A DNA stretch of 61,384 nucleotides, filler included, from Sphacelaria rigidula (GCA_964200075.2; 11 parts of 11 records of this genome joined end to end with filler, not necessarily neighbours in it), one strand, 5' to 3'; positions 691-39,499 are shown, counted from the first letter of the whole stretch. Notes: generated by a model not told the origin, from the letters alone. A program made the numbers and translations.

Positions 691-3146
691 ACAAAGTACC
701 TGTCCTGGGCCCTTCGCTTGCTATATTGTACCTTTCACGGCATACTGCGCGCAAGGGAGCCCACGCGCCATCTCCAACCATGGCGCCCACACATTCGGCT
801 CTTTTCACGCTCATTTGCCGCTTACAGACGCCACAACAATCAGGCCCTTCCCCCCCGGAAATACTTCCCGAGTCTCTCCGCAGCGACACAAGAACTGAAT
901 TCACAACTCACAACGCGTCGGTTTTCGTGCTTGCGGGGGGTTACGCAACATCGTGGTGTTGCGATATAGGGGCTGGTATCAGGGCCAAGCCAGGCTCTTC
1001 CGTCGCCAACGGACGGTTATCACATCATGGGTGGTTAACAGATAACAATCGTCACGCATATATAAATGGAGACAGTACAGCAATAGCGTTGAACTCTACA
1101 GAGTCACATGCGCGCAACAGAAGTACCCAGGGAGCACATACATTACATGCACTGGACTTTGCGTAACAATCACCAACGACGGGCGAGAAGTTCGGATCGT
1201 GTCCTCAGCTGTTATGTAGATACTGTGGGCGCCGGTGCAGGTGAGATATGCGGGGGAATGAAAGCTGCGAAGAAAGGCAGGACCACTACATTGTATTAAT
1301 AGCAAAGAGAGGAGGGAATAAGATGGGTGTCGTGAGGTTCGGGTCATTATCGCTGCACTGTATGATGTACTACGGGGGACGATTCACACGGGCTCGGTGG
1401 GGTGTGCGTGCGTTCAGCGACTGTCGAGGGCGAGGGCTTTAGCTATCCATCCATATCTGTTGGGCGCATGTTACTCTACAGGGTTCAACGCAATTGCTGC
1501 ACTCTCTCTACTTATATATACGTGACGGTTCTTATCCGTTCCTTAGACCAACCATCGATCATGTGATGACCGTCCGTTGGTACCGGAAGAACCTGGCTTG
1601 ACCGTGATACCAGCCCCTGTATCGCAACAGCACGATGTCACATAACGCCCCGTAAGCAAAAACGACCGACGTATGTCTCACTGTAACTCATTCACATCCA
1701 TCGGACACCAACTTTTGCGAGAATGATGTCGAAACTAATTCCAATCGGTTGGGTAGCTCTAAACACACAGGAAGCATAGAGCTTTACGAACGTGTTCGTC
1801 GAGTTCGGCGTTGCCAAACAGTGAGAAGAATGCCCAAATTTGTTCCGAAAATCCGGGGATAGACCAGTTTTATCCCCGAATTGACTCGTTTCTCTCTTTG
1901 GTGCCAGAAAGTAATGCATTGTGATGCGTGAAGGTTAATACCAAAGGAAAAGATCTGGATTGTCCCAGGTGTTCCACTTCCGTAGTCATTGTCGATTCTG
2001 CTGCAACATGAGTGATTCGGAGGCATCGCTCAACGTGGGTCATAGTACCTTAGTCGTAATCCATGAACATCAAATTTCGGGAGATTACTGTCAAAATGTA
2101 TTTCGATGGGTTGAAGAAGCCAAAAGCAAAAAATACGTCTTCGTCGAGTACGGCGTGGTCAAACACAGACTTTATGGCCAAAATTGTCCCGAAAACCAGG
2201 GGATGGGCCATGTTTATCCTCGCACTAATTTTGTTTTTGTGAAACGGACCGCAACGACAAGTGGTTGATCATAGAAAAACTTTGTTCCTGGTGAAAACCA
2301 TCACCCTATCTCGCCTCAGCTAAGAACATCCTCTCCTGGCATTTTTTCGCCATTGTAACACACGCACACACACAGCCTGCTGAGCGCTCAACCGGTTGTA
2401 CACCAGAAAAACTCAGATTACAGGGTGGCAGCCCTTGATGCGTCGCACCAGCAACAGTTAGGTCACCGCCGGAGGTATCTTTCTTTACTCCATGTGCCAA
2501 CAAGGCGTCTCTACGAGCGTTTGATCTCTCGTACATCCCCCTAACTGAGGTGTAGCAAACTAATTCTCGTTGTGAACACACAGGTGCAGAGAGATCGGAT
2601 GAAATCAACTATGACAATAATACCCTCCAAGTTACGATTGGATTTTCTTATTGCCGCAACACCGTCCCTGCTGGCATGTGTGTGTGAGAGAACAGTAGCG
2701 GTGACGAGAACGTCGCTCCGTTGTTCGACGACGTGTTCTGCAGCGCACAGAGGCGCGTCCTGTCCACAAACGGAGGCAAAGAGGTTTCAATACAAAAATC
2801 AGCTAGGGGCAAGCACATTTTAGACCGAAACATGGCTACGTAAAACATGTGCACACATTAGGTAGGACTGTTTAAGGTAGGGAAGACGCCGGGCTGACAA
2901 GGTACTTTTCTTTTCGGTCTGGGTGTACGAAAGGCCCATGATAAAGTATGGAGAAATGTGCCGTGGGAAACGTGTTGGGAAACTGGCTTTAGAGGGAAAA
3001 TGTGGAGAATGATGGACAAGATGACAGAATGTACGAATAGTGCCATGATGCTAGATCGGAACATATCGAGATATTTTGACATCTTACAAGGAGTTGCACA
3101 CGGACGGACGCTATCACCCACTTTATTCAGGGTGTTTGTCTATGAT

Positions 3147-3667
3147 GAGTCATGCTACGATAAAGGGGGGGGGGGTAGTTTTAGTTTGGGCCGTTTTCTT
3201 CCACAAATTCTACTTGCAATCGTCGTTGATAGCAGCAACGGTTATTCGAAGAGCAATGCTACGGTAGGGGTGCACTTTTTTCGCGGAATTTTTTTCTGGT
3301 TCAGGGGCTCCTGACGATTCTAGATTGCACAAGAATATGGGTCAGGGCATCCTCGTTTGCAAGTTCATTCGGGATTTCCCCAGAACATTGGAGTAGTAAT
3401 CCTGGCGTACTTTCACATATTTTCACAAGTGGTGTTTTGCATGAGATCAAGGGCTCCTGGCAATTTTAACTTCAGAAAATATTTGTGCACCCCTAACCGT
3501 AGCATCACTCCGAACGCGCTTGCTATCGATGAATAACGCTCATCCATACTGCTTGACACCGTGTTTGCCCAAATACAAGCGCACCGCCAGTATGTTGGGT
3601 CGTCTGAAGCATGAATGAGTCCATTTTTCGCGGAATCGAATACCCCCCTCTCTATCATAACATGACT
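3147..3667. mobile_element. MITE with GAGTCA-type TIRs inserted in the LINE RT
   Basis: Left end gagtcatgctacgataaaggggg is inverted with right end cccccctctctatcataacatgact. Removing it rejoins RT sequence (FVYD/LIRAV). The same terminus occurs at 22361-22422 (minus) and 50135-50194 (plus). Confidence 0.75.
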
Positions 3668-3994
3668 ATCATCTGATAAGGGCAGTGTAAGTAACAAAGC
3701 AAGGAGTCAAGAAGGGGGAAGATGCGGCATCAAGATTCATGTTCGCGGATGATTTCGTGGAAAAATCAGAAACACCAGAAGGAGTGCGGAAGCAAATAGA
3801 GAAGGCGCTAGGATACACTGAAAAATGGAGAGTAACAGCGAACGCGTCATAAATGCGCGGTACTTGTGTATAACGAAGATAAGAACCCGGTAGAGTTAAA
3901 ATGAAGATTGGGAGAAAGGGCGTTGTCGATCATAGACCAGTAGGCATACCTTGGCGTAGAGATCTTAAACAACTGTTTTTGGGATGCGAACATA

Positions 3995-4368
3995 TGTATT
4001 GGTCCGACTGTCGCCACAAGGGTGGAGAAAATGGGGGTTCGATTCCCGATGCATTGGGTTTTCTTCGTAATATCTGATTTCCACCGTGGAAAGCGTGAGA
4101 ACGTGAGTAAACAAAGTAGTCGACTGAGTTCGTTTGACGTGAGTTAACGCTTTGCGGGAGTGCTGACCCCGTCCGTGCAAGGCGCGTACCGGGGAGAGAT
4201 AGATGGCTTGATCTCTTGAGACCACGAACTCGTCCCGAGGAAGGAAGGGGGGGGGGGGCGTTCTCATGTGTTGCTTGCCTTAGTCGTTTGACCATTGACC
4301 ACGCATCCCTTTCGAGACGGAGCACAGCAGGAAGGGAGGGGGGTTCAAAGCGTGACAAACGAAACATG
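3995..4368 (+). mobile_element. Probable tRNA-derived SINE inserted in the LINE RT, itself carrying a poly(C)-tail element
   Basis: B-box GGTTCGATTCC at ~4036. Flanks cgaacatat and cgaaacatg resemble a TSD. Removal rejoins FWDANI to NKVMEEGK. The 3' body (ggcgYgtRccgggg...tcgtYcc.ag.ga.ggRaggg) recurs at ~9339-9410 and ~15846-15915. Confidence 0.55.
4247..4325 (-). mobile_element. Short 5'-truncated copy of the LINE 3' end with poly(C) tail
   Basis: Reverse complement matches 5365-5447. G12 at 4247-4258. Flanks ggaaggaagggg and ggaagggaggggg look like a TSD. Confidence 0.8.
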
Positions 4369-5490
4369 AATAAAGTAATGGAAGAAGGCAAGGCGCAGAT
4401 GGGCAGGATGGACGTGATTCTCAGAGACTCGCACCTAGATCCTAGGGTTAAAAGATGTATTCTGATGAAGGTGATTGTACCAAAGCTAGAATATGCTAGG
4501 AGAAGTGTGACAGGAGAACGCGACGTTGGTGAAGAACTTGGAAACAGTACAGATGGCAGCACCTAAGAAGGTTCTTGTGCTCAAAAACGACTGATGCAGC
4601 ATTGAGAGCAGAGTCGGGAAGGTACCCACTTCAAACGAAGAGATATGAAAAAATAAATTGACTGTCAAGAGTAAAGAACATGTAGCGAAAGATATTGCCA
4701 GCCATCGTTGATAGGGCTGTATGGAAGAAAGTGGCGAAACGATAGGCTGGAGTAAGATGGGATAGCGAAGGCGAGAAAGTATGGAAATAAATAGAAGGAA
4801 ATCAAGACGAGATACTATCCATAGATGAATGTGGCGGGTACATAACCAGGAAGGGACATGATACATAAAAGTGGAAAAGGGTCGCCAAGACGCAAAGCGA
4901 ATGAGTAAGAACACCTGAAGATATACAGGGGGTTGAGAGACGGGACAGGGATAAAGCCACATCTGCAGGGCACAGTAGACTTTGAATCTTCGATTTCGGG
5001 TGAGGGACCTGGAGATGCCAGAAGGAAGAGGTATACCAGGAGTCTAGTAGAGGAGGAAGTAAATGCACAAAATTGCCCCCGTGGCAAAAAGTAGAGTAGG
5101 AGTCATATAGTGGCGGGATGTAAACTATACTAGGAGAAACAGGACGTGCAAGAGGGGGAAATGTGGAAAGTAAGTGAAGGTGGCACGCGATCGTTTGATG
5201 CACTCAACCGTAGCGAGAACGGTGGTTATACTAGGAGATAAATGGTGGCCACAGACGGTGATACAGGATGGGGAAAATATACGTTTAATATATTTGTGTA
5301 GTGTATGGAAGAAACGCAATGATCACCGGAAATATTGGAGGTGTCTGTATTAGGAGTAGGGACGGTGCTCCGTCTCGAAAGAGATGCGTGGTCAATGGCC
5401 GAACGACTAAGGCAAGCATCGAATTAATACCAACCCCCCCCCCCCCCGATGGGGTTGGCGTGCCTTGGCCATGACCGTATAAAACACACC

Positions 5491-6007: not shown

Positions 6008-8731
6008 CTGAAGGCGTATATTCGCTTCCCGGCCCTCATTCTGCTTGAAGGTATCAAACGCATTCTTCAGGTCACAATCGCCTCCAACAAGAGAAGTAGT
6101 AGCACTCATGTCCCGCCCCCCTCCCTTCGACGAGTTGGTGGCGATAACTGCGTCGATTGCATCAGTACTGTGTGACGATGCTTCCCTGCAAGACGCAACG
6201 GGCCCTGTCGCGTCCTGCCCCCTCTCGATATCGTCACCTTTACCGCAACAATTAATACCACGAAAGCCTCGATCAGCCAGCTCCAATCCTTGCGCAGTGA
6301 TAGGCCGTGGTCCTCTTGCCGGAGGCAACGGGTTACGATTATCTTGGTCACTGCATTTCGGCCGTCGAGACGGCGACGATCCCGATAACAGCGGTCCAGA
6401 TAAAGATCGATGCGCCCCTAATCTTTCGAGGCAATTGGACCGCCGATCGCAGGTGCGATGTTCATGCTCATCATCGGGCACGTTCACCCAATGTATCTGC
6501 CGTCGTGATCTCTGTAGTCGTCTCAGAAGGGCTCCCTCGTCATGAGTAGAGAGATGGTCACTGGATACAACACGTTTGCCCGCCCCGTCGCCTTCAACGT
6601 TCCTTTCATAATTTTCTCCGTTTCCTTCTCCGTTGTAAGGATTATGTGCGTCAACGACAGTACAAACCGCGTCCCGAATAATGGCGGCCGTTGGAGATGG
6701 CCCGCGATGTGCGTCCCCCCCGCCGGTATGAACCCCCTGGCTTGGTGATGGCTCCCCTGCGAAAGAGTATTTGGTCTCCTCCGTGTTGGTGATAGCGTTG
6801 TTGTTGTTGTTGTTGTTGTTACGTTTTGCGATGCCCATGGCGTGGGTTCGTTCCTCACTCGATCCCACTGCCGCCGCCGCGGCTGCCGTTGTCATGGAAG
6901 CCCACAAGATCTCCCTGAGCGCTCGCACGAACTCATGCGCGTGTCCGACGGTAGTAAATTTCGGGGGCGCGGGAAACCCATTCGTTCTCAGGATCTCGTC
7001 GTCAGGAATGGTGCTCGCAGCAGTGACGCCGACGGATGTAGGGCTCCTTCGCTGGTGATGCCGTCGCACTCGGTGGTTTTGAGGTCCTAACGATAATTCC
7101 TGGTCCGTGGCAGCATCGGCTTCCGTGTCTAGCGGGGTGAAAGTTCTGAGGCCTTGGGTCCGTCCGGGCGACCGTCGGTCTCTCTCGTTTTCCCTGTTGT
7201 CGTCATCATTGCTACTCAATGTTCCGTGCTCGTCGCCCCCCTGCTTCTCTTTTCTTGAAACCTGCTGCGGTGTTCCCGGTTCTATTTCTGGCAGCACGAA
7301 GCGACCGGCTTCCTCCCATACCTCGCGACGTTGGAATGTGTCCAATGGTGGTGCGCCCGCGGCACTGCGGCTGTGCGTTACTTGCGCGAGCTCGGTTTTC
7401 AACTGTCGCACCTGTCGTTGAAGTCTGCGATACCAGCGTGTAGCGCGGACGGGTTTGATTAGGGGGGAGTGGCGGCAGGCTGCATACATGACAACCCGAT
7501 CTCTCTCTCTCTCTCTTTTTTGCGTTGTATTTGGTAACGTCGAAGTCTTCTTGGGGCCAACGCCATTGATTGCGGCCTACCCCAGAGGGGAAATACGTCA
7601 CGAGAGAACATGCACCGCGACTTCAGCTTGCGCCCGAAAGTAACCGGTAACCTGCTGGGCAAACTTGCAAATACCGTGTAGCCGGGTGTGCATGGCGTAT
7701 GCCTGGTCGCGATCTATCTGCGTGCTCCGATTACGGAAGTATTTCACGAGTGTAGACGCACGACGCACTCAGCAGGGGTGAACCCAGTAGTCAACACAGG
7801 CGCAAGCACGAAAGAGAGCAATGGTGCCACCGCACCTCGATATCTCGTCCGTCGTGGAAGAGTAGCCGTCGTTTACTACCGGGTTGTTCTTGACGCAGCG
7901 CATTCGAGAAGCAAACTTTAACGTGGCCAGGGTTTGCGATAGCTGGTCTGGTCGCGGCCACACGCACGCGATCATGAGCGTGCGGCAGTTGCCACCCAAC
8001 GAGTCCTGTCTTGAAACAACGAGGATGCGTGGAGGATACCGGGGCGAGTATTGAGATAATTATTTTCACTAGAAACAAAGGCGAGACATCCGTGTGCTGA
8101 CGAGTATGGCGATCGGAAGCCGACAGGGGCATGGACGAACGCTTACTATACAGCAGTACTGCGTGTCATAGCAGGCGCTAAGACTCTCTCACCAAGCCTA
8201 CCGACCGATTCCGTCAGCCGACGACATCGTCAGAAGCCGAAACATATTTCTAACTTGTTTCCGGTTCAAGTCAACATGGTACATCTACTTAAACAACCGG
8301 GCTTCCCCCCAGGTGCACTATTTGACTTCCGCACTTGCTCGCCTTGAGGAGATGAGTCAACTTGCTCTGCCTGAACGGGACGTGATCCCTTGTCTTGTCG
8401 GCAAGTGCAATGGTGACCTTGAAGAGTGCAGTCGGCACAAATTAGCATCAGGGCACGTACAATGGAAGGGCGTGTATTCTGTAGATTCATTGGATGTAAT
8501 CCGTACGTGCGTGGCTATGGCGGACGGGGGGGAGGGGGAAAAGGTGGATCATGTTGCAGGATCATTCAGGTAATCTTTCAAACACCCGTACGTATTTTCG
8601 CCTTTTACGTACTACTGCACTCGTATTTCGCGGTAACTTACACCAGACCTCATGTAGTACGAAAGCTATGTTCTCTCGTCAAGTATATTCTTACATACAG
8701 TAGTCGCGCGCTCAAAACAAAAAGAAGAACG

Positions 8732-8777
<46 letters not shown>

Positions 8778-10326
8778 GCAGACAGATATATTGAAACACG
8801 AGAATAACACCGTTCGGTTTCCGTTCGAACAACGGAAAGAGAATTGCAAGTACAGTACGCATATGCGTCATCCGCGGCGCCAGTGGTTCAAGTGGTATAT
8901 AGATGGCACTAATTAGGTCGGGAGTGACGCTGCGATAACCCCCTCCCCAAACCAGCCCCAAAACTGTCACGAATAAAATGGCTATACAGCGCATGATAGC
9001 TGGTTTCAGACTGCATGAAGCGCTTCACATGGGTGAGATTGACAAAGACGATCCCAAGCGTGGGAATTCCCAGCTGCATTCTCGGCGTGCTCGGCTTTTG
9101 TCATTTTGGTTTTTATGTAGATTTTGCCTCCTGGACCCACTAGCCACTTTTCGGGGAGGGGCTATCGCGGCATCAGTCTCGAGAGAATGCGCGTTCGATC
9201 CCCGGCATATGCATTTTTTTTTTCTGAAAATAATGTGATTGATGAGGTTAGACACGTGAGGATTCCGGTGATTTATTTGAGGAGCGTCGGCGCGGTATAC
9301 AGACGTACTAAAACCGAATCCGCGATACCAGAATGCAAGGCGTGTGCCGGGGGAGAGAAGAGAGGTCGATGTCTTGACACCATGGACTCGTCCCGAAGAA
9401 GGGGAGGGGCTGAAAGTGTGACTGATAATTGTATACATATATGTTGTCTCTTCAGGATGAAAGTTCGCCCCAGAACTGGCAAAGCCACCCTTTTCACAAC
9501 AGTAAAGCTAGGCATTGCGCCGCTCATCCTCGCTCGAAGGTGACACACAGTCTCTTTCAAGCAAAAATGCACGAGGGCTATTGTGCTACTGTATTACTGT
9601 ATTTGCATGATTTCGCACCTGTTCTAAGAACGTGAGAGATTTATTGATGTAACAGCTCTGCCGATGGACGATTGCGTCATCGTCCGTCCCCATTCCTCCA
9701 CGCAATTCGCTCTTCTCATTTCCAGCCAAGTCTACGAGATTAAGTTTCGAAGTCGTTGCAGCAGGGCTAGCATCTTCGCGAGATCTCTCCACCACGAGGT
9801 GAACAGTCAGAACCGCGTGTGACCTGAAAAAAACGCACCGATTGCGCCCATCACCGCCCTTCAGCATGAACGCAATGGGTACAGTAGTACTACGTGATTA
9901 AAAGTCAGATATACTTAGGTTTGTACGATCTACCTGCACCCCTCCCTCCATGTGGTTATTGCTCCGCCTCGAAAGGGATGCGAGGCCAATGGTCAAACGA
10001 CTAAGGCGAGCAACAAATTTGTACGCCCCCCCCCCCACCCGTGTCGTTGTTCCCACCCACTCTTTTGAGGAAGTTTGGCGTTGTAACGAACTAGTGGAAC
10101 CCGTGCATCCTTACCATACTTCAAAGTAAATCTGCAGAAGGCACCTCTCCCCCCGCTCATATTTTGGTCAACAGCTCTCCTTATCCCTTCAAATCAGCGT
10201 GAACATACGCGCTCACCTGGAAGACGTGTGATTAAGCTGGTTCTCGGCGATGACTCTATTGGCCTCGCCGTGCCGCAGCATTGCCATCGCCTCTTCTTCC
10301 GTATTCACTGGCTCTATACTCAGCCC
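6008..10326 (-). CDS. KIF9: Kinesin-9A (KIF9/KLP1-like), partial; exons 10326-10217, 9823-9619, 8417-8343, 8005-7836, 7424-6008
   Basis: Exons splice in phase to give switch I NHTSS/RSH, switch [61 protein letters not shown], a neck coil [14 protein letters not shown], and [16 protein letters not shown], which resembles the KIF9 tail motif. The P-loop exons and C-terminus are not on this contig. The last donor (6007) is less certain. Confidence 0.9.
8733..8774. repeat. (CA)n microsatellite in a KIF9 intron
   Basis: About 21 perfect CA units. Confidence 0.95.
9960..10036 (+). mobile_element. Short LINE 3'-end copy with poly(C) tail in a KIF9 intron
   Basis: gctccgcctcgaaagggatgcgaggccaatggtcaaacgactaaggcgagcaac...gtacg followed by C11. 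Flanks ccctccatgtggtt and ccacccgtgtcgtt resemble a diverged TSD. Confidence 0.8.
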
Positions 10327-11326
10327 CTAAAAATACAGAAACGAGGACATTTGGAGCGGAAGGATCCCCCAAGCAATGAGGATGAATAATCGATGCTGAG
10401 ATCGCAGTTAACTTGCGGGAAAATATTCCTGGAGCATGGTAGCTTCTGCCTCAGGTACTACCAGCACTGCTAGCATTATTTGGGACGGCAGGACTTGCGT
10501 ATCCCTCTGTATGATACATTCTCGTCCAATGCCCACCTTGAGTATTTTTGCTTGTATGCGCGAGGAGTGTGTCGCCTATTTGTTTCAGAGCCACTTTGAC
10601 CGGGGCCGAACAGTCGGCGAAGAATTAAATCAAAACCGTAGAGACAAAAATAGTACACCACGTCATGATTGGGCCGTGTAGCGTGCACCTTCGCCATCCG
10701 ACGTGAGTTGCACAATTAGACCCACTTTTATGGCAACGAATCTCGATTTGTACAAATATGAGGATTTCAGCCCGTCTACGGGCGATATCTTTCCGTGGAT
10801 TGATATTTCGGATCCCAGTCCGTTGGGCAATGCTTTTCGCCTATCTGTGAGCAAACCGGATAGATCAATTCTCCGATTTTCTGGACGTTGACTTTTGGTT
10901 TATCACCTCTCTGCCCAAATCGGGACACTCCTGCATCTCCCCCGATTTTTGAAAACAAATCGGAGGAGATGCGGGAGTCTCCCGATCTGGGCAGAAAGGT
11001 GGTGAATAAAAAAACAGTGGATCCTAGAACATGGGGTTCATACAAAATATGAGGTTGAAGTGGCATTTCTCTTTTGCAGGNNNNNNNNNNNNNNNNNNNN
11101 NNNNNNNNNNNNNNNNNNNNNNNNTTAATTAATTAANNNNNNNNNNNNNNNNNNNNNNNNNNNNNNNNNNNNNNNNNNNNATGCGAGGTCAATGGTCTTA
11201 TGACTATGGCAGGCATGATCATGAGTACACCTCACCCCCCCCACAACAACAGAGAGAGAGAGAGAGAGAGAGAGAGATCAGAGTTCTGCTGAAGCGACGG
11301 AGAGTATCTCTTGAGTAGTACATTTA

Positions 11327-11907: not shown

Positions 11908-14900
11908 ATGATGGGTGGCGATGAAGGATCTTCTGCTGCAGCGGTTGCAATTTCTGTTTCTGTAGGTGCGCGGAAGGTTCTCCTGGAGGATGTGCTCCTT
12001 GTGGCCGTGCACAAGGCTAGGGTGGACCTGCACCCTGCCTCTCTTGAGAAGGCGTGTCCGTGTGCATCTAACAAGAAGGGCGTGGAAGATAAAGCATTCG
12101 ACATCAGGTACTACATATTGATGTTTTACCCCTTGGTAATGCCCAGCGTTACCGTAGTAGTGCGCAGTGCTGCCCAGGTCTAGTGGTAGCGGAAAGAGTA
12201 GTCAAGGAACTTGACGGGACTGTCAACCAACCTCGTTATACTACAATCGAGTACTTTTACCAAGATTTCATGTACTGTGACAGTACGGTGCACCACAGTA
12301 CAGTCAGCACAGCACAAGACTGTCTTCAGTGTTGTGGATCCCCTCATCGCAACACGGGGTTTGCGGGGAGATCTGGTGTGTTCTGCTTGACAGCCAATAT
12401 GTATGTCGAGTTCCCATTGCGATCTAAAGCATCTGATCACAGTCACTGTGTTATTGCCGATAGGATCGCTGGCCTTTTCCTCTTTGGCTGCACAAATGTC
12501 GGAGAAGATGCACGGTGAGACGGCGAACATTTGTCGTGCGGGCTGCCACGGATGATGGATACAGTTGCTGTATGTAGTCGGAAACATTCTGTACAGCCGC
12601 CCAGCAAAAGCAGTTCCTGTCGCTTCATCCAGTGGTAGGTACAGCCAATGCTCTCTGGCAGTACGAGTATTGTTCTACGTGACTGCACACGGTGGGGTCC
12701 ATGACTGCACGGGCTTTTGCGCTGGCTGTGTTACGGCGTGAAAATCAATACAAGACGAGAGGCAGGCTCACCCGCGGTCAACTTTATTCTCTGCTGAGCA
12801 ATCAGGCCTCTGAAATCTCAGATTTGGTTATTCGATTCAGCGATGATTCGTGTGACCCTTGGAAATAAGCGTGCCGCGTCACTTGACAAGCAATATTTCT
12901 GAAACAAATTTGTACGCAGTCCATCCTAGTCCATGTGCAGCGAGGTTACATGCAAAGAGCCGAACCCTAAACATCACGCTATCCGCGCCCGAGCCCCCCA
13001 ACACGTCAAAGCCAAGTACGATTCAAACGTGATTTTTGGGCGACGGGTTCGGGTAAAGTTGTGCTGCTGCACGTGGGCTTTTGACTATCTAACCTCGTAA
13101 CATCCTCACGTGCGTCAGGTCAGATATCGGGAACACTAGTCTGTTCTCCCGGGTTATTGTCTATCCTGTCCCCGGAGTAATGGTCATACTCCAACTTCAG
13201 TTGGTGTCTCTTCCCACGCCCCCTGGAGCTCACTTCCCCTTTCGACCCTGGAGTCTCTCTCCACACAAGAACAAACTGTCTAGGCACGTCCCACGGCCAA
13301 GTCCGTGGCTTCCTGAGACTACTTCTCCCACACCCAGGGGTAGTAGCCTTATTAGCGTCGACTTGACAAACAACCTACTTAACATTAGTATTCTTGTGCT
13401 ATTTACATATATATATATTAAAAAATATATATACCCTTAATCGACAGCATTTTTGTCATGTGAAGGCGAGGTGAGACTTTATCGATGACCCGACTTAGTG
13501 CGGGTTTCTTGGCACCGCAGGGCTGTAGGAAAAACCGGCAGAGAATGTAGTTTACGTCAAATGACGTGGAAACCCAGGGGGGTGGGGGGGGAAGGGGGAA
13601 TTTGAAGCTGCCGTAAAATTGGCCTGAAGCGTCCACGTGAGGCATCAAATAGGAATTATTTGTCCAAGGGACACAACGCTCGCCGCATTAGACTAGAAAT
13701 AGGCAAGTTGCAGTCGAAGAATTGAGATTCGGATTGGGCTGTACTATCGAGCGGGCATTTTTGCCCGGCGCTCCCTTGTTCGCGGCAGCAAACCAAAAAG
13801 CAAACAACATATTTTTGGCGAAGTAAACTATGAGCGGGTCAGGTTATTTAGGCATCGTTCTGAACTTGGTATGGTCGAAAAATTTCCTTGAACGGTCCTT
13901 AACCCTTCGACCGCGAGGGTAGGTCACCCGCTGAATCGGTATCAATTTTCACTTGAAAAAAATATGCATAATCTAGATGGACTACCCGCACCGCGGTCCA
14001 AGGGTTAATTCCAGCTATTCAAGCCGACTTACCACCTGGCCTGGGAGTATTCGAGCCACGGCAAAGATCGAGAGAGCCACCCGATGGTGTTTGCGGGTGT
14101 TGCGACCGTTGTAGAGCCAATTCAACTAGTCTATTTTTATGTGTTTTACACTGCGATCGTCTTCTATGCGCACTGCATTGGATATGTGACTCACGACTAT
14201 TGGGATTTTTTATATTTCATACGTTTTTGTTGAACCCGAGAATTTCGGAGAGTGGACTAACCCTGGGAGGATCCCGCTGATGGATTATCATCCGCCGCGC
14301 TACATCAATCATGATTAAATCCGAGTAGTTGATGCCAAACACAACTACTGTACATCCTTCTTTTTCTTTCAAGCCAAACTGGAGTAAGCATGCACATATG
14401 CTGCCTCGGTGTACATGCCACTCGCACAATCAATCATACTGTACACTCAACCCTTTCCCCCTCCCAAAAGATATTTTTGGGGTATTTGTTGTTCACGACG
14501 ACGGTACAGCAGTATACAGATGTTACAACCACTGAGCAAACCCCCCTGTCCCTCCAATACCAACTTCAATCCCACCCTCCACGCCAAACCAACATTAGCG
14601 ACATCTCGGATGTCCCGGCCGATAAAGACGGCGCTCTCTCGGAGACGGCCGCGCGCGCGACGATGTTCGCCAGAGTCGCGTCTTTGATGAACGGGCGATC
14701 TGGGGTGCGGAAGGAGGTGATCGTGTTGCTGTGCGACATGCTGAACAAGGGGGTTGTGCCTTTACTGGCGCGAGGGGAGAGCGGGGGAAAGGGCGATGGT
14801 CCCGCTTTGGCTAAGGCGTTGCTGGGAGAAGGGTTGTGCCTGTTCCAAGGGGAAGTCAGGTACAGAGATGGTGATAGTGGTGGTTCTTGTTCCATGAATT

Positions 14901-16544
14901 TATTCGGCTTTGCGCTTAAGTCGCTTGATGTGGGTCAAGTTGCGTTGCTAATGCCAGCGTAACTGTATTGTGTGTTCACGTGTGTGCGTGTGTGTGTGCC
15001 TGTGCGCGTTTTTTTTTTCTTCACAGGTTAGGTATTTTTCCCATGTGAATTGAGAAAGCAAAGTAAGAAGGTCTGTTCCACGTGTATACCGACTATAATA
15101 ACTCCAGGATGTAAAAGTCTTTTCTCTGCACCATGCAGTCATGCATGCTGTTGTAGTGAGACCGAAGATATCTGTGTTTGTGCGACGGCGTTCACGAGTC
15201 AACGAGGTCCAATGGTGATGATTACCACCATTCTTACTTCGTCGATGTACGCCTGCTCGTTGTTGTGTGCTTCATGAAATACTCTTTTAAAATACGCGAG
15301 AGGCTTCATGAGTTCCGCAACCTCCGCGAAGGTTTTGAGCTTGGCCCTTTTTTATCAGGCAATGCGCGGTGGTCATGACGAAAGCAGAAACAGAAAACAC
15401 TTGATTCTTGACAATGTCCCTCGGTTACTCCGGCAAGTACGGTCAATGTTCAGCCGACCCAAGCTGTACTCTCTCAAGGGCATAATACTAGTGAAGCAGT
15501 CTAAACCGCCGCACTCCGGTGGTTTAGCGGTACAACTGACATCATCGTTTCGTTGGTGGATTGATTGTCGCACATCAACTGTTCCCCCCAGGAGTCATGA
15601 TCCAGTCGTGGTCATTATCCACAAGAGAGACGTACCCAGGGTAACCCAAGGGGAAATGCCGTTAGGCCGAGAAAATGTAGGTACGATTCTCAGCAGGTGC
15701 ATATTCCTTCTTTTTTCAGACGTATCTGATTTCTGTCGTGGAAATCGTGAGGAGGTATACGTGGTACGGAGGGGAAAAACAACATTTCACGATAGACGAC
15801 GCGGTGCGAGGGTGCTGATCCTGTCCTGCGGTACCATAATGCCCTAGGCGTGTACCGGGGCAGAGATGGGTTGATTCCTTGAAACGACGGAGTCGTTCCA
15901 AGGAACGGGAGGGCTTGAAAGTGTGCCTATTAATAAGAAAAGAAGAAATCAGGAGTCACGAGGAAAAAGTGTTGATGACATGCGAACAAGATCGACAGAG
16001 ACGCATGAATAAACGGAAGGACGTGCGTTCACAGAAGTATAACTACACTTTCGGCCAGTATCCCTCTGCCCATTTTTTTTTCACTTGTAGACCGATAGCT
16101 TTGGGCTTATCTCTACGGTTGACAGCACGACTACTTGATTTTAGAGTCGAGAAAGTTCTGAGAATTTTTATGGTTAGAGAATGTGGTTTGGTCGAAATCG
16201 GCGCCTGCGGCGTCGATTTGAGGTCTGCCAACGCACTCTTTGCCTGAATAGGGGAACCTATGCAACCCTTTTGCCCGAGGGTATCGTACGCCTTGGGTCG
16301 AAGTTAGCGTTAGGGTTATTGTTATTGTTAGCTTGTCCGAAAAAATCAACCACAGATTTTTCTGTTGCGCGACGCTCAACATCCCGCAGACCATTGCTGG
16401 AAGCAGCGTCCGCTTGCGGCCTATCCCCGCTTTCCATGCTGACCCCCGGAGAGGGAAAGACGATCGCACTCGGCAACTTTGTCGGCGTTGGAGTGGCCGC
16501 CATGGCTGCTGGAGCAGCTGCAAATGCCATCGAGATAGCTGACG
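11908..16544 (+). CDS. Histidine/phenylalanine ammonia-lyase-fold protein, N-terminal part, lacking catalytic motifs; exons 11908-12107, 14599-14859, 16390-16544
   Basis: GT-AG exons splice in phase (2,2,1). ALSETAARATMFARVASLMNGRSGVRKEVIVLLCDMLNKGVVP, ALLGEG and ACGLSPLSMLTPGEGKTI match HAL/PAL helices. The MIO-forming ASG is replaced by GKG. The gene continues off the contig. Confidence 0.85.
13903..14004. mobile_element. piggyBac-type MITE, 102 bp
   Basis: TTAA on both sides (13899-13902, 14005-14008). TIR cccttcgaccgcg / cgcggtccaaggg. Confidence 0.85.
16100..16370 (+). mobile_element. Member of a MITE family with a TTAGGG-like block
   Basis: gaaatcggcgcc...tttgcc...ttgcccgagggt...cgccttgggt..gttagcgttagggtta is shared with ~26380-26545, ~26760-26900 (minus), ~29960-30130, ~32000-32190, ~45035-45135 and 45931-46242 (minus). 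Confidence 0.7.
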
Positions 16545-16770
16545 GTACGTTGGCTATGAACTGAGGTCGTCCGGGGGGGAGGGGGGGGGGGGGGTTCCAA
16601 ATTTGTTGGTTTCCATAGGTTTTTGCGCAAAGACCTCCTATCCCTTTTGGGCTGCAGGCCGGGGGGGGGGNNNNNNNNNNNNNNNNNNNNNNNNNNNNNN
16701 NNNNNNNNNNNNNNTTAATTAATTAANNNNNNNNNNNNNNNNNNNNNNNNNNNNNNNNNNNNNNNNNNNN

Positions 16771-19700
16771 CTTATCATCCGACGGAATCCACAAAACATC
16801 ACTACTGCCAACACGGACGCGAAGCAAATCCCCGTCAGCCATAGTAGCTTGACCGAAAGTCATAGGAAAAGAATGAACACCGTCGCCGACTGTTTTGCGC
16901 TGCGCGGTACAAATGACATCTAACGAGGGCAGCGAATCATCGGCATCACACGGGCTGTACCCGGCAACAAAACGAAGAGGCTCGGTAGGAACCTTCACCC
17001 AGCGAGACAACAAATGTCCCCAACAACTGCGTTCTCCAGGAATGTGTTCAATGGCATACCGGTATTGGCTTAGTACCCCTTCCCAATTTTCAAGCGGTTG
17101 TGCCATGGCCTTCGTCACCGATGTGACACACTCTTCGGGATGAAAAATGTAGCTGAGATTACGATGATCGGTGAAAATGCGGACACCACCCCAAAGCAAG
17201 TACTCTAGCCTTCGAAATGTATTGACTATCGCGAAACCTTTCTTGTCCACTGTCGCCCACCGCAACTGTGAACCCTCAAAATTACCACTGAGAAAAGCCA
17301 GCGGTTCGTGTGACATGGTTTCGAGCGCAATGCCACTAACAAATTCTGCGACAGGCACTTGCGTAAAAAAACTGCCCCAGTGAAAATCCGAAGCATCCGG
17401 AAACATGACAACAACTCACCCTGGATGAGGATGATACAGCGGCATCGCTTGCGCCACCAAATCTTGCGCAGCACGCCATGCCCTCACACGATCCTCTGTC
17501 CACGCATCCTCCGGAATTGTACGGTTACGCACCACCCGCTTGGTCCGACGCGAAGCCCCGGCCATGATTTCTTCCAGAAATACTCGAAGCGGAGCAACTA
17601 CTTCCGCCATGCGCGGGAGCGAAGTCCGCAACCAAATCACCGCCTGCAGAAACTGCATCAGCTCACTAGCGTTTTGAGGACGTCGCACATTGCTCAAACC
17701 TTGAACACGGACGGGATCATGCGAAACAGTACCCTTGGAGTACACTTTACCACACCAAACCACTTCGCGTGCAAAAAAAGTGCACTTATGCGCAGCGACG
17801 AACAGACCAATACTCTGCAAGCGGCCAAGAATTTCGTCAAGCAAAGCTAACAGGGCTTCTTCGGTTCCAGCAAAATAGAAAACGTCATCCACCCACACTT
17901 TACAATCTAGTCCCCACAAAATCTTTGTCAACACACCTTGAAAATACGCCGTGGCGTCCAACACGCCCTGCAGGACACGAGTAGGCGTGAACAAGCCTTA
18001 AGGCGTGACGATCGTGAAGAGTTCCTGAGCCTCCGGTGCCAGAGGCATCTGCCAATACCCCTGTAGCAGGTCCAACTTGCCGAAGCATTGGGCTCCCAGC
18101 AACTCCCGCATGTCTTCCTGGCTTGTCATTACCCCTGGAGACTGCTCCACTTGCGCGTTCACCGCCTGATGGTCGCTGACCAAACGGAATAGATCCCTTT
18201 TCGGCACCGCCATCGCCGGACTCGTCCACACAGCTTGGATGTTCCTCACCACTAAACCAAACGCCATCGAAGCTGCGATGCATGAGGCTAACCACCCGGG
18301 CTTCACCGGATCGTACCGTCTGGGCTTGGCCTTCACCACCTTTGCCTGGGGCTTGATCTGCACCCTCATGGGCTCAACGCGCGCTGGCGGGTCACCACGC
18401 AGCGCACGGCGAAATATATCTACGCGGCGACCAAGAATATCGCGCAGACAATGTGCGCCATCGGCGCTAAGGCCCTTCTGCTCGATCTGCCGCACACTAT
18501 CCTCAAGCGCACGCTCCCGTGCACTTCTCTCAACTGCTGGGTCCATGAACATATCAGGCCCCCGATCGACCAAGCGCTCTACTGCTGCATCAGCAGGAGC
18601 CTCCTCCTCACAGGCGCTTTGGAATGACCGTATTGATACGATCACACGCCTTGCAGCAAGATAGCTGGAATTTTCCACGACAGTTTGCACCGGCACAGCA
18701 CGCGGACGTAGCTTCTCCAACGCCAACGGATACAAATCAATTCCCGGCTCCTTGATTGTTGCCATGCCAAATAGAACGACGTTGTCCCCACCGGGCATGA
18801 CAGCGAAAGTAATGGGCTGCAACTGCACCGCCCCCCACGGCGTACGAACGCTAAAAGCAATTGGCACCGTTTTGTGTGTAACCGTCACGGGAGCACCCGT
18901 GGCGGTCTGCGCCGTTTGCGGTCCGTTTTCGAACGAAATTTGAAGCTGAGCGCCCGCCAAACTGCGAAGACATTTGCTCAAGCAAGCCCACACAAATCGA
19001 CGTGAGAGCGGACCTAGAATCCAGAATAACTCTGGCCATAAACGAACCTACAGAACCAGGCAAGGATAAATCTGCGCGTAAGCATTCACCCTTGCGATCG
19101 GCAGGTACCGCGCCTGCCGAAGAACCCTGTTCTGTCCCAATAGTCACCTGAAGCCATGGCTGCCCTCCAGCCCTTGGCATCAATAACTGCGAATCGTCGG
19201 TCCAACCATACCACGTCGCCGACTATGCAGACGGCGCTGTAACCGCCGTCGCAGCCCTAGGAAATTTACCAGACACGGATCCTGCCTGGCCGATGGGTTG
19301 CGAGCTATTCGCTCCAGCACTCCCCACCGGGGTGTTTCTGTTTCCCACGTATACTGTCCGCCCCGCTACGGACGAACCATAAGATCTAGAGTCACCACCT
19401 GATGACGTAGTGGAAGAAACAGCAGCGGAGGAACCACAGTCCGTCGCCGATTGCTTGCTTTCGCGGCCGCAGCGCCCGCGTCCCTGATTTTCACGGCCCC
19501 GTCAACCGTGACGACTGCTCCGAGATCCTGATAAATCTCGCGCATTGCCCTGTGCAGCGCCTTGAGCGCGAGGCTTGGGGCAGTCTTTGATCATGTGCCC
19601 GGTGTTGCCGCAGTTATAACACACCCGAGTGGACGACTCTCGCGAAGACGGCTGCTGTTTCTGTTGCTGTTGCTGTTTTCGGCGCGAACCACCTGCACTT

Positions 19701-20574
19701 GTCGCAGAGCCGCACCGGTCATGTGCTTCGATGAATTTCCACTGATCGTCCGCCTCAAATATGTTTTTGAACACCACCGTCGGGTTCTTGTTCCAGCCGT
19801 CAATATACGTCAGTACATTTTTCACACTCGCCTTGAATCCCGGGGGCAAAATCCCATCCACCAAAGCTACGGACACCGAATCGGCCGGGCCAGGCAACCA
19901 ACTCCTGTCCTCCGCACGGTACATTGCTTGCACCATATATTTTCCAGCAAAAAACCTTTCCATGTCTGAACCAACCATCATGGCACGATTCTTCACGGAC
20001 TTTCCATCGCTCTGCTTCATTGTAAGTACCATACGTAGGTCTGCTGCAGCCCGCGTAGTGTCATGCTTTCCACCGGTTGTCGTATACCCGGCATGCTGCT
20101 TCACAGCATCAAGCAATTCATCGCAGGTCATAACCCGACCGTCCTTGTACATATCCTCGAAGCAGCGGTGATGTAGACAGGAATGAGTTGACTCATGCTC
20201 ACCCTCTTATGCCGTATGATTCCTTCTGCAGTAGCTAGACTCCACCTCTGTACGTATTCAACGTATCTCGCAAACAACACGCGAGATGCCTCCTCGGTCC
20301 ATAATTAACCATACTTTGGCGGCTGTAATGGCTCACCTAATACCAGCGGCGTTGCCGCCGCTTGAGCCATGTCGTCTATACTTCAAACACTTCACGGAGA
20401 TGCTCTTGCCTGACTTGTGCGTCTTCCAGCTCACTGAGCGTCCTCCCAGTGCTGTGCGCTTCAGGCTGCGTCTCCTCCTATCTGCGGGCTCTGCAACTGG
20501 CTCTATGAACTGCTGCCCAATCTCTCCTCAGCCAAAACTCCTCTAACAGGGTGCCGGAAGAAATATCTAGATAT
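16771..20574 (-). mobile_element. Ty3/gypsy internal region: gag (zinc knuckle), protease, RT, RNase H; pseudogenised
   Basis: CYNCGNTGHMIKDC in ORF 19502-20152. Protease ILDSRS at ~19020. RT motifs LDLLQGYWQM and VWVDDV. RNase H motifs FPDASD and IFTDHRNL. In-frame stops at 17998 and 17416, plus frameshifts. Confidence 0.95.
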
Positions 20575-22499: not shown

Positions 22500-25400
22500 T
22501 ACGTTGCAACGGAGACTAAGACTGGTGGACACGCATCCGCAGCAGACAGTGCACAAGATAACTGCCCTATTCTAGGTGGTGGGGGCAAGGAGGTTTGGAT
22601 AGCGGATAGCGGAGCATCATGCCACATGTCTCCATCGAGGGAGAGAATATGTGATTACGAGCCTTGCACGAGTGTATCGGTCACTGTAGGAAACAGCCAT
22701 TAAGTGCCGATAGCAGGTTTTGGCAAATTTTTGGTATCAATGGTTGGTGACGATGATCAACTAATTTTCAGTATCAACAAAGTGGCACATGTCTTGGAGT
22801 TAGACGTAAATTTGTTTTCCCTGCTGATTGTGGCCGTGAAACATAATTTGCAGACTAGTGTGACGAAGAGAGGGACTGTGATTACTTTGCTTGATGGGAG
22901 GGGAGTGTTTTTCAAGAAGAAAGGAAGGAGTTATATCATGGTTTTTACTTGATTGTCACCATCAACCACTTCGACGGATTGCAAAGTTGACCACGATGAG
23001 TGCGCCAATGCTGTTTTCGCCCCTGGAAAGATGCAAATCAACCTCGATCAGGTGGACATCAATCTGTTTCATCAGTCTCACGGCCACCTGAATGAGGGCT
23101 TGTTGCGAGAAACCGCGAAGCAGCAGGGAGCGTCTTTGGTGGGAAAGTTTGAGGAGTGCAAGGGGTGCTCCATGGCCAAGGGGCTGCGAAAGCCCAGTCA
23201 AAGTTAGTTGAGAGTACGGGAGGTTTGAAGTATTCGCTTCTGATTCGGGATGATTTTTGGCGGAAAGTCTGGATGTATTTCGGGACACACAAGTCCGACA
23301 CTACTAAAGAATTCGAGCAGTACCTCGCAGATGTGGGTGCAAAGTGCACTCCCTCGGTGGTAGAAACTGTAAGGTCGGACGGCGATGGAGATTTTGCTGG
23401 GTCTTCCAGCGACCTGTGTAGGACACGAGGAATTAGACAGGAGCACACGCCAGCAGACAGTCCTGAGTATAACGGTGTGGCTGATCGTGCGATAGCAATG
23501 GTTGCACGATTTCAGGCGAAGGTACTGTACGATGTTGATGTTCCGGCAAGAACGTGGGCTGAAGCGTGTCGTTGAGCAGCAAACGTATTGAATCGCTCTG
23601 CTACCGCGGCTAGCCCTGGTATGAAATCTCCAGATAACTATACTATGGTGTAGTACCCCAGGTTAAGCTTTTACCTTTCAAGCCGGGGTACATTCAGTAC
23701 AAGAGAACGTCAAAGTGTATGCATAAAGCACAGGAGGAGTATTTTTACTTGGTACCTGGTTGCAACTACCCCCGTGACTCCATGAGAATGGAGACGAAGG
23801 GTAGATATGTCATCACCACTCGCAATGTCACTTGGTGCCGTTTACCCCCCTCAAGTGCACAAACAGCGGTTCCGTTTTCTAGGCGGGGTAGGGAAATCTC
23901 GCAGGATGTAGAGAGCGGGGAGGGCGATGCCGAGGACAATGATTCAGGGGAGTCGGACCTTGGGGTGGGGGTGGGGGGGTAAGCCACGGATCATGCGGTG
24001 TCCGAGCAGCGTTAAAGAGATGCCAATGAGAGGTCGGAACCTGAGCAGGGACTACACAGTGACGACGGCGAGAACACAATGGAGCAGCCGCCTACGTCGC
24101 TTGCGTCGTCTACATCGTCTGTCGGTGGCGGAGATGCCGCGAACCAACTATATTCGGTTGAGTCGATGCTGGGTCGAACGTGGCAACAGACACGACTGCT
24201 ACAGCAACAACGCCAAGAACAGCGACTGCATCATCATGTGTCTGATCTACAAAATCTAGAAGGCAATCACCGTGCGTTGTGGGTAACGACGGAGGATTTG
24301 TGGGACGCCGACAGGATACTGGCATTCCTGCGCGACGCGGACGACCCCAAAAAAACAGGGGAGTCTGAGTTGGAGGTTATTCCATATGTTACTCTTGATG
24401 AGACGGAGGTAGCACCGAAGACGGTGAAGGATGTAAACAATTCTCAGGTCAAGATAATGTGGGTTGATGCAATGGACAGAGAGGTGGAAGGATTGGAACG
24501 TAACAGCACGTGGACAGTTGTAGACTCACCGCCAGCAGGAGAAAAAGCAATAGATTCCAAGTGGGTTTTTCAGTGGAAGACTGATGAGCATGGTTATGTG
24601 ATCGTCAAGCTCGACTGGTGTACAGGGGTGATCGTCAAGAGATTGGGGATATTTAAACGTTTTCACTTACCCCTTCCTCAACAACCAACAGAGTAGCCAT
24701 GGCGGTAGCTTGCGCTGACGGAAATGCCATTTTACTCTTTGATGTTGAGCGAGCTTTGAGGTCTAGGTGGACGGTCAGGTGCTGTCGTACACCTGAGGAA
24801 GCGTTTGTATGAGATTCGACCAGCGGCTAGAGAATGGTTTGTTAATCTGGGTAAAACTATGAAAAGTCTGGGCTTCGACCAGGGTTTGGTCGACCCGTGC
24901 ATTTGTAGGTGTATGGACGGGCAGGACGTCCAGGTTTTGATTGTGGTGCATGTCGATGACATTTCCGTGGTGGGTGATGAGGCTCTGTGGAACAAGTTAG
25001 CTGCAGATCTCGTCTGTCACTTTCCGACGAAAACTCTTGGAGAACTGGTCTTGTATGCGGGGTGCGAGTATAGGCACGGCGTCGAGAAGGGCATTCTGAA
25101 GTTGTCACAGACTACATATATCCAACGGATTCTAGACAGGTTTTCCATCACTAGGACCGCAGCGACCCCCGCGTACGTTTCACTTTTTTCAAGGTTGATG
25201 AAGGAGAAGGCTTCAGGCGGAGGTATCGCGAGGCGGTAGGATCGCTGATGTGGCTCTCTAGTAACACTCGCCCGGATATCGCCGATGCCGTAAGAGCTGC
25301 TTCGAGGCACAACGAGAACCCGACAGCAGAAGACTGGCGCAAGGTGTTCAGGGATTTCGAATACCTGAGGGCTGCGGTAGATTTAGGAATTACGTTTATC

Positions 25401-25890
25401 AGGGGTTCGAGCGACGAGTTAGTAGCGTATGTGGATGCTGACTGCGCAAAATTCGACGATCGGCGTTCAGAGTCGGAAGGGGCAATATTTTTTCGTGGGG
25501 CTGTGGTTGGATTTTTCTCTCGGACTCAGCGGAATGTAACATTGTCATCGACTCAAGCTGAGTATGTAGCGATGGGGGATGTGGTGAAGGATGCTCTTTT
25601 TGTGAAGGTGGTACTGAAATTCATGCAACCGCAGAGGAAGGAGTTTTGCGTTCTGGTAACAGTATGCGAGGACAACCAGGGAGCGATTCAGCTCGCTAAT
25701 AATCCGCGAAGTTCCCACAACGGTAAGCATATAGATATACGTCATCACTTTTTGACAGAGTTGGTGTGTGAGCAGGTCATCCGAGCGGAGTATGTCCCGA
25801 CAGCTCGACAACATGCTGATGTGTTGACGAAACCGTGACCTGAGCATAGTTTCCGGTACCACGGGAATGTTTTGATGAACATCAAGTAAC
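22500..25890 (+). mobile_element. Ty1/copia pol remnant: protease, integrase, RT, RNase H; decayed
   Basis: WIADSGASCHM (~22596), HQSHGHLN..CKGC, RSDGDGDF, PEYNGVADR, KAIDSKWVF, VHVDDI, TRPDIA, YVDAD, EDNQGAI, KHIDIRHHF, ADVLTK. Copia domain order with stops and frameshifts. Confidence 0.95.
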
Positions 25891-33539: not shown

Positions 33540-33999
33540 CCTTCTGATGGTTGAGTAGTGGGGTTAAACTCCCGGGGCTATCTGTTATTTTTTCCGACAC
33601 CATGCCCAACAGGTGAGAGCGACTATGTCGTGGGTACACAAAATTCGACTAAAAATCGTACTATGTAGTGTTCATGTGGTGAGACACCCATGAGGCAGTG
33701 TGTAAAAGTCGTGGCTGTCTCTGGAAGTGGCGATACCACGAAATGAGGCAACCCATTGGAGGCTGTCATGCAAATGCAAGATAATCAGTAGGCTTTGGGC
33801 CGAACAATATCAGCAGGATGCAGCCCGCCCTTCATGGGACTCGCCGAACACACCAAGGCGTTTCGCGCTTGGTGATTGGGTGTGAGCCTGGTCCGGCGGA
33901 AACCCGGCGTGTTCCGTCCCAGCTTTGTAGGGATGCGAGGTCAATGGTGTTATCAATATGGCATGCATGACCATGAGTACACCCCCCCCTCCGCCCCCC
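33540..33999 (+). mobile_element. SINE with partial tRNA-like head, shared core and LINE-type poly(C) tail
   Basis: 33540-33650 matches head and core 36483-36590. 33930-33999 matches the LINE 3' end (gggatgcgaggtcaatgg...gagtacacccccccc). Confidence 0.65.
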
Positions 34000-36447: not shown

Positions 36448-36817
36448 ACCCGCCCCGGTGGCTCATTTGGTAACCTCAAAACCTTCTGACGGTTGCGTCG
36501 TGGGGTCAATTCCCGGAGCGATCTGGGATCATTCTCACACCATGCCCAACAGTGGAGAGCAACTATGTCGTGGATACACAAAATTCGACTCAACACGTCA
36601 CCAGGGAAAGGGACTGCTGAATCCCTTTCGCGATAAAAAATACTGGCAAGCACTGCAGAAGGAAGGTGGGGTATCAAAACAATAAGAAACAAAAAGCCCC
36701 TGTGTTGACCTTCCTCCTGTGTGACCCCGGCTGGTGCGCCCACATATACCGAAAGGTGTAGACCGGCTTCCAGAATAGATGGGACGACAACACACACACA
36801 CAAAAACACACACAACA
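36448..36817 (+). mobile_element. Near full-length tRNA-derived SINE with (CA)n tail
   Basis: Head gccccggTGGCTCATTTGG (A-box) ... GGGTCAATTCC (degenerate B-box). Body repeated on other contigs. CA-rich tail, with caggtcac on both flanks as a probable TSD. Confidence 0.75.
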
Positions 36818-39128: not shown

Positions 39129-39199
39129 GGGGGCGTACTCATTTGTTGCTTGCCTTAGTCATTTGACCATTGACCACGTATCCCTTTCGAGACGGAGCA
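39129..39199 (-). mobile_element. Short LINE 3'-end copy with poly(C) tail cut by the contig edge
   Basis: Closely similar to 4254-4325. A G-run also lies on the other flank. Confidence 0.8.
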
Positions 39200-39499
39200 G
39201 GGGGGGGAGCTATGCCTCGAAGCAGTGGTGGAGGTTGTTGGTAACGTGGGAAAAAATAGCAAATAAGTTGCAACGGCAGGGAACAGGAGTTTTGAGGTCC
39301 GCTGACCCTAGTAACAGTGAGATACCTCCGATAAAGATTCTAGTGTCAGCGGTAAATGCTATTCATTTCCACACAAAGGATAAGTTAATGAAGGTATGGG
39401 TCCGGGTGGTCCATGGATTACCATATCGATTTATTTCGACAGCAAGTTTCTTCAGGAGAAACAAGAGCACGTTATCTTTCGGAGGGCGATGGAGATTTC

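Follow-up and report, generated by a model that had tools for sequence, protein, structure and literature searches.

The conserved segment and the C-run behind it, which recur in the stretch of DNA analysed here (the window; 61,384 nt), are quite probably the terminal 3′ part of an APE-type, RTE-X-like non-LTR retrotransposon from a stramenopile alga, which ends in (C)n and inserts through target-primed reverse transcription (TPRT) at C/G runs. A C tail, C/G-run targets, and a G-run primer together form the best explanation of the observations described below; the G-run priming and the endonuclease's preference for C/G are the parts that we infer. To our knowledge, almost all LINEs studied at the bench end in poly(A) or A-rich repeats. 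A LINE family with a C end and C/G-run targets offers a natural way to test how far target choice is governed by the pairing of tail and primer and how far by the endonuclease.

The window consisted of 11 pieces of about 5,490 bp with N/ttaattaattaa linkers between them, and represents a contig sample of a repeat-rich eukaryote. By BLAST, pairwise reading, and MAFFT, the end segment with its C-run was located at six places, in pieces 1, 1, 2, 3, 7, and 8; all of the six copies on five contigs reported in the initial annotation were thereby found again. A degenerate 35-nt pattern on the invariant columns matched the window six times (three mismatches or fewer), exactly at copies A–F, and matched nowhere in 100 dinucleotide shuffles. 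A seventh, decayed copy (G) was recognized by sliding alignment. The segment common to the copies was 66 nt long (68 nt in copy A). The annotated ~75-bp segment was correct as to the repeat, which consists of 66–68 nt and then C8–C14, but its start at 5361 had to be corrected, as the short copies start at 5366; in the LINE copies, homology extends further upstream. The copies were as follows, P0001 and L006 being the protein and the contig of an intact LINE described below.

2794..5433, plus strand: LINE copy A, from the RT to the C-terminus (tblastn with P0001; blastn with L006, 73–75% identity)
5366..5433, plus strand: end segment of copy A, equal to the ORF end of intact copies
5434..5447, plus strand: C14 run closing copy A
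4259..4325, minus strand: mini-copy B, the 66-nt end segment only, 96% identical to the intact LINE
4247..4258, minus strand: C12 run after B, comprising the tail and the start of the 3′ TSD copy
9960..10036, plus strand: mini-copy C, 66 nt and C11, 91% identical to the intact LINE
11181..11242, plus strand: copy D of a divergent subfamily, cut by the piece start, ending in CCTCA and C8
16573..16670, minus strand: copy G, a decayed mini-copy composed of C10, a 66-nt unit-like stretch, and C14TC7 (sliding alignment)
33540..33999, plus strand: copy E, with the tail segment at 33908–33981 followed by C8 TCCG C6, closing a non-coding repeat
39129..39207, minus strand: mini-copy F (66 nt; 98.6% identity with the intact LINE)

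The carriers of the segment were of three kinds: long LINE copies (A and, outside the window, L001–L004), a non-coding partner (E), and mini-copies (B, C, F, and G). D and E formed the divergent subfamily, with 78–81% identity to the intact LINE compared with 91–99% for B, C, and F. E and L006 were 78% identical over 64 nt, and D had the same tail subtype as E but was cut.

The run closing the segment was C14 in A, C12 in B, C11 in C, C8 in D, C8 (followed by TCCG and C6) in E, and C14TC7 in G, and in the contigs from outside the window it was C8 (L001), C11GC5 (L002), C10 (L003), and C13 (L004). A run of at least C8 was present at all 10 copies with an intact 3′ junction, copy F being cut inside its run; at a junction, tail C's and target C's are indistinguishable. 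An A-rich tail was seen in none of the 11 copies (seven in the window and L001–L004), and the earlier statement that poly(A) is absent applied to all 10 complete 3′ junctions, which end in a C-run. Sequence shared past the run was looked for and was not found among the window copies and the outside contigs, whose flanks were unrelated; this supported the annotated reading of the C-run as the true terminus. Only the 3′ flanks of A and L006, both G-rich here, weakly resembled each other. Both flanks (5448–5490 of the window and 1–94 of L006) begin with G(A/T)TGGGG.. and are alike at 17 of 23 positions, a likeness that could reflect a tail-to-tail arrangement or chance. The 3′ flank of A also weakly resembles an inverted, deleted unit, and many of the sequencing-run contigs described below match this flank (bins 5450–5477).

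Three of the seven window copies lay at piece boundaries (D at 11181, G at 16670, and F at 39129), and two of these were cut inside a C/G run: of F's 3′ C-run, the piece start leaves 5 C, and the 5′ C-run of G is truncated by the piece end. Such positions speak for C-runs that are sequencing or assembly artefacts, for example poly-G read ends of two-colour chemistry. The chance that this is so appears negligible, as unique sequence was present on both sides of the run in A, B, C, and E, and the same junction was found in four contigs from independent assemblies and in four sequencing runs. Moreover, a high-copy repeat with a homopolymer is expected to break an assembly, and the pieces evidently end at D, F, and G for this reason. 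Copies of this family thus matter in practice: they break short-read assemblies at homopolymers, and three pieces of the window end in them.

Public collections were scanned with the pattern, which yielded three metagenome contigs (L001–L003) and one MAG contig (L004, extended to L006); the viral contigs scanned gave no match. The 'bacterial' MAG contig of L004 is evidently algal contamination, and the MAG contained one copy only. In L001–L004, the segment was preceded by a homologue of the ~100 nt upstream of copy A and followed by a C-run, with four unrelated flanks. L006 contained a 1382-codon frame that was open from stop to stop (P0001). Pfam analysis of P0001 identified Exo_endo_phos at residues 193–415 (E 8e-11), Exo_endo_phos_2, and RVT_1 at residues 763–1012 (E 7e-32). 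On the element strand of the 5,259-bp L006, this was the one ORF of at least 150 aa, and only EN and RT domains were detected by Pfam, with no ORF1 and no RNase H; L006 ends short of the 5′ end of the element, and an ORF1 further upstream is possible. The presence of an apurinic-like endonuclease N-terminal to the RT in one ORF is that of an APE-type non-LTR element. The 5′-truncated copies (A, and B, C, F, and G of ~66 nt), the TSD at B, and the lack of LTRs and TIRs are those of a LINE. The annotated LINE 3′ end was thus confirmed by intact copies that encode APE and RT domains.

The ORF passes through the end segment (..GAPSRKGCVVNGQMTKASNK) to a TGA located 5 nt before C13 in L006. The ORF end was the same in L001, L002, and L003, that is, the segment was read through in all four intact copies. 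Because the ORF runs through to its stop, the end segment comprises the last ~20 codons, the stop, and a 5-nt 3′ UTR; the previous reading as a 3′ UTR module had to be abandoned. In addition, L006 contained at ~4745–4805, about 480–540 nt upstream of the ORF, a degenerate reverse-complement likeness to the end segment (..GCCTTGCCATTGACC..GAGACGGAGCA). It may represent a mini-insertion in inverted orientation, or else belong to the 5′ UTR.

Copy A aligned to residues ~799–1382 of the intact ORF, being truncated at about residue 799, and was interrupted by foreign DNA at 3147–3672 and 3995–4362. Its final ~15 nt before the run and its stop have diverged from the family, and Pfam analysis of 141 stop-to-stop frames of pieces 1–3 gave no RT/RVT match in its broken frames. 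Judged from its sequence, copy A is an old, 5′-truncated, and decayed LINE. B (96%) and F (98.6% to L006) are far younger than A.

The target site was investigated using B, which sits in a G/C-run of a repeat (repeat X, 3995–4362) that itself lies within copy A. Two features were located with respect to this insertion.

4329..4343, minus strand: 5′ TSD copy of B (CCCCCCTCCCTTCCT), the 3′ copy being at 4242–4256
9397..9409, minus strand: paralogous empty site reading C4TC4TTC at the position of B, in a second copy of repeat X (9334–9420) without the insertion

The TSD copies of B were identical at 14 of 15 positions, a score that 15 of 2000 shuffles also attained. The duplication certainly spans 8 nt (CCCTTCCT), without mismatch, and at most 15 nt; B's own tail may be anything from C2 to C9. 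Both flanks of B aligned to the empty site and overlapped by 12–13 nt, the site being a diverged paralogue of X and not an orthologous allele. TSD-like flanks had been annotated for two copies, and those of B were upheld by these results. The flanks of C, identical at 15 of 19 positions, were not, as this was reached by 926 of 2000 shuffles and is at chance level in a C-rich context. For the 3′ flank of A, a TSD was searched for upstream in piece 1; the best candidate was a weak match (16/20) at 1394–1414 and was not accepted. The 5′ junctions seen come from short copies only and none from a long copy. A C-rich run was present no more than 25 nt upstream of all four mini-copies, and it directly abutted the 5′ end in F (C8, 39200–39207) and G. 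The proposal that the element inserts into C-rich targets was therefore borne out by the TSD of B, the paralogous empty site, the C-rich sequence before the short copies, and the tandems described below. Repeat X (3995–4362 and 9334–9420, both plus strand) has a box-B-like string (GGTTCGATTCC, ~4036), and about 90 bp are common to its two copies.

These data also bear on another reading, in which the same picture would be produced by a tail-less LINE that ends ..GAGTACG and inserts precisely at the 5′ edge of an existing (C)n, the endonuclease or DNA binding confers the specificity, and the junction C's belong to the target. It is in line with the paralogous empty site, which already reads C4TC4, with the 15-nt TSD reading of B, which leaves only about 2 C's for the tail, and with the C-rich sequence at both ends of the mini-copies. 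We nevertheless consider it improbable. At all 10 junctions, whose flanks are unrelated, the run is C8 or longer, whereas piece 1 elsewhere has only four runs of at least C5, the longest of which is C7. In addition, the consensus of the loose ends in the run contigs stays C's up to its 30-letter limit, and (C)n is counted as the element's 3′ end in the entries of the Ectocarpus curators' table (PMC12477816).

For the preferred C-tailed element, we propose the following mechanism. One long ORF of about 1,330–1,380 codons, with the endonuclease followed by the RT, ends 5 nt before the closing (C)n, so that the last ~66 nt are coding sequence and would also be an RNA signal for the element's own RT. 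The bottom strand would be nicked in or beside a G-run, and the 3′ end of the G-run would pair with the C-run of the RNA, as a T-run does with poly(A) in L1. cDNA would then be made, and a staggered nick of the top strand would give the duplication beginning with C's. The C-run would most likely be templated from the parent copy in variable register, a special polymerase being unneeded. Since the tails of the element are themselves C-runs, new copies would land in old tails, resulting in tandem unit-Cn-unit arrays.

The genome-wide arrangement was viewed using Logan contigs of four sequencing runs matched to 5100–5490 at 80% likeness or more. The numbers of matching contigs per run were 20781, 10999, 17046, and 4178; these count DNA-type contigs and not copies, their depth cannot rank parts of the region, and one of the runs was labelled algae metagenome. 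Loose ends at 5418, the point at which copy A departs from the family, (936, 565, 796, and 247 contigs) showed the family end ..AAATGAGTACG followed by C's, with an agreement of about 0.7, and those at 5366 (220, 183, and 187 contigs) lay behind C-rich sequence, with an agreement of 0.46. Joints that go back from 5447, 5431, or 5418 to 5362–5366 via C-rich spacers of 4–32 nt were also detected, which indicates a tandem unit-Cn-unit arrangement. Other contigs crossed 5366 from about 5293 and were of the LINE type. A minority of the loose ends, at 5398 (102 contigs of one run and 75 of another), read ..GCAACAAAAAAGG and not the usual end; the sequence seen stops short of their termini.

Hundreds of contigs per run began at 5366, the same base of A at which B, C, and F start, and far more contigs lay on the unit than upstream of it, though contig depth cannot rank parts. 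These features would fit a 66-nt unit that exists in its own right, as a small mobile element or a gene for a structured RNA (mini-SINE, MITE, or ribozyme), beside the LINE or captured by it. This is very unlikely, because the LINE ORF reads through the unit to its stop in 4/4 intact copies, the encoded peptide is kept at the C-terminus of distant relatives, and a search of the unit detected no Rfam family (E up to 10), no tRNA, and no terminal inverted repeats. At the gathering threshold, Rfam had no match in the whole window, and at E up to 10 it gave nothing in 3900–5490 but a chance CRISPR-repeat match. The z-scores of the single-sequence folds of six copies were −1.0, +1.4, −0.7, +0.7, −2.2, and −0.9, and five of the six were no better than shuffles. 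In the alignment fold, 1 of 18 pairs was compensatory and the covariation term was 0.02; two hairpins were predicted, one of them GAAA-capped. The unit was consequently rejected as a known ribozyme or RNA gene, given that no Rfam family, no convincing fold, and a covariation of only 0.02 were found.

The segment was next considered as the coding end of the LINE. Its nucleotide core GGATGCG(T/A)GG(T/C)CAATGG (GGAUGCGUGGUCAAUGG) did not vary among the copies, the non-coding E included, and the encoded G-C/R-V-V-N-G was found near the C-terminus in relatives that were only ~40% identical. In these relatives (P0007–P0030), a low-complexity Cys/Gly/Ser-rich stretch that could not be aligned was followed by G-C-V-V-N-G..A-M-A within about 10 residues of the stop. 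From this comparison, it seems that throughout the clade the ORF ends within the 3′ signal, and the conservation of the core fits a constraint at the nucleic-acid level, with the RT recognizing the 3′ end. The fold z-scores and the covariation given above lend such an RNA signal little structural support. A combined role in coding and recognition would explain why the segment is present in non-coding partners (E and probably D) and in the ~70-nt mini-copies (B, C, F, and G). A coding end that doubles as the tail of non-autonomous partners is worth a specialist look, as are the ORF stop 5 nt ahead of the tail and the very numerous ~70-nt copies with their common 5′ start.

The repeat that copy E terminates is at least 460 bp long, and tblastn with P0001 detected no LINE coding sequence upstream of the segment in E. 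D and E share an invariant tail core with the LINE copies, as SINEs share their tails. No Pol III-type head (tRNA, 5S, or 7SL) was found for D, E, or repeat X: ARAGORN predicted no tRNA in the window, and Rfam at E up to 10 gave nothing tRNA-like at 36400–36650 and 3960–4140. A tRNA-like head suggested by eye, from box-B-like strings only, was unsupported by both ARAGORN and Rfam and was discarded. E is classed as a SINE-like partner of the RTEX-N type. The first 114 bp of its repeat was 82% identical to 36482–36593. This sequence falls in 36440–36830, where the E-type repeat has a paralogue of its 5′ part. The paralogue begins at ~36458, preceded by C-rich sequence (CCCCTACCCGCCCC), and diverges after 36593; a (CA)n-like tract follows at ~36790–36820. 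The head may be common to partners of different LINE clades (cf. Ectocarpus 'unknown4-N1').

The start points of the mini-copies B, C, and F were within one base of each other, at the equivalent of 5366. Two routes could lead to such a fixed 5′ end. A short RNA might be cut from LINE or read-through transcripts; alternatively, the RT might copy the upstream C-run, and the G-run of the cDNA would anneal to a C-run in the top strand of the target and close the insertion. The fixed start, the lack of a Pol III head and of a body, and the C-runs on both sides also raise a tentative idea, namely that the ~66-nt segment and its C-run are a self-sufficient retrotransposition module, the shortest LINE-dependent retroposon known, with G-C-V-V-N-G as a by-product of the RNA signal and not a protein motif. 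We regard this as conceivable but rather doubtful.

Other features of the window were also recorded. Kinesin motor-domain ORFs, which are host gene fragments, were identified by Pfam at 7772–8059 and 9589–9897 (minus strand); mini-copy C, located shortly after 9897, is probably intronic. The only other Pfam match in the frames of pieces 1–3 was Lyase_aromatic, in an ORF for an aromatic amino-acid lyase at 14333–14959 (plus strand). Roughly eight tandem units of about 88 bp each, 80–87% alike, were present at 42726–43448. Long open frames that by eye resemble Ty3/Gypsy- and Copia-type pol/gag were noted at 16771–20206 (minus strand), 57770–60172, 24016–25835, and 51332–54029 (plus strand), and two of the Gypsy-like regions of the window were related to each other.

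In L1, TPRT proceeds with an A tail and a T-run primer, and the element has an APE endonuclease, 5′ truncation, and TSDs beginning with the tail base. The window family resembles L1 in its APE endonuclease, its 5′ truncation, and a TSD that starts in the base of the tail. Unlike L1, it has a homopolymer of C, would not need polyadenylation, and has a 3′ UTR of 5 nt, and its tail is shared with partners, which points to 'stringent' recognition of the 3′ end. Microsatellite-targeting LINEs are known in animals. As in LINEs that end in simple repeats, among them the (CAA)n and (CA)n families of Ectocarpus, a short templated repeat would replace poly(A) in the window family and could anneal to a similar repeat at the target; unlike in these LINEs, the period is 1 and the targets are C/G runs, including the family's own tails.

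The closest named proteins were those of Ectocarpus sp. CCAP 1310/34 (57–71% identity), and the last 20 residues of one of them, P0006, are almost those of the window family. The source of the window is hence probably a brown alga or something closely related. A search for a prior description, as proposed in the initial annotation, revealed that the trait is not new, since it is already annotated for RTE-X families in the Ectocarpus table (PMC12477816, Genome Biol 2025, supplementary file 1 / table 3). In its entries, RTEX-1_Ec32 is entered as 'single EN-RT ORF; (C)n 3′', its TSD being given as 'C-rich' and its length as 5.5–5.9 kb, and RTEX-2_Ec32 is entered as '(C)n termini/TSD' (PMC12477816). 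RTEX-N1_Ec32 (607 bp, >6000 copies) carries the remarks '60 bp 3′ end 83% RTEX-1/RTEX-2' as well as 'can be present in tandem', its head being given as unknown, and RTEX-N2_Ec32 (188 bp) is non-autonomous (PMC12477816). Other Ectocarpus LINEs in the table end in (CAA)n (RTE-1/2_Ec32) or (CA)n (CRE-1_Ec32), and the curators' family naming is blastp-based (PMC12477816). Besides this supplementary table, no description was found in the literature on poly(C)-tailed retrotransposons.

By this table description, the window family is similar to RTEX-1/2_Ec32 in its single EN-RT ORF, (C)n 3′ end, C-rich TSDs and termini, and length of at least about 5 kb, as well as in its partners sharing the last ~60–100 bp, its tandems, and its very high copy number (PMC12477816). 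The (C)n 3′ end was found at 10/10 junctions, and the C-rich TSD is seen in that of B and in the C-rich 5′ flanks. Membership in RTE-X is suggested indirectly, by the single EN-RT ORF architecture and by the link to Ectocarpus. Unlike RTEX-1/2_Ec32, the window family is nearer to unnamed metagenome proteins (75–91%) than to the Ectocarpus ones, which makes it a probable member of the RTEX-1/2 group from a different species. Copy E is similar to RTEX-N1/N2_Ec32 in being non-coding and in sharing only the last ~60–70 nt and the C-run with the LINE, whereas the mini-copies B, C, F, and G differ from these in having neither head nor body and in being shorter than the 188-bp RTEX-N2 (PMC12477816). 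A 5-nt 3′ UTR, a coding overlap, and ~70-nt mini-copies do not appear in the table entries with which RTEX-1/2_Ec32 were compared (PMC12477816). Relative to the Ectocarpus families, two features of the window family are thus possibly new: a near-absent 3′ UTR of 5 nt combined with the overlap of coding and recognition, and the abundance of ~70-nt mini-copies that share a single, fixed 5′ start.
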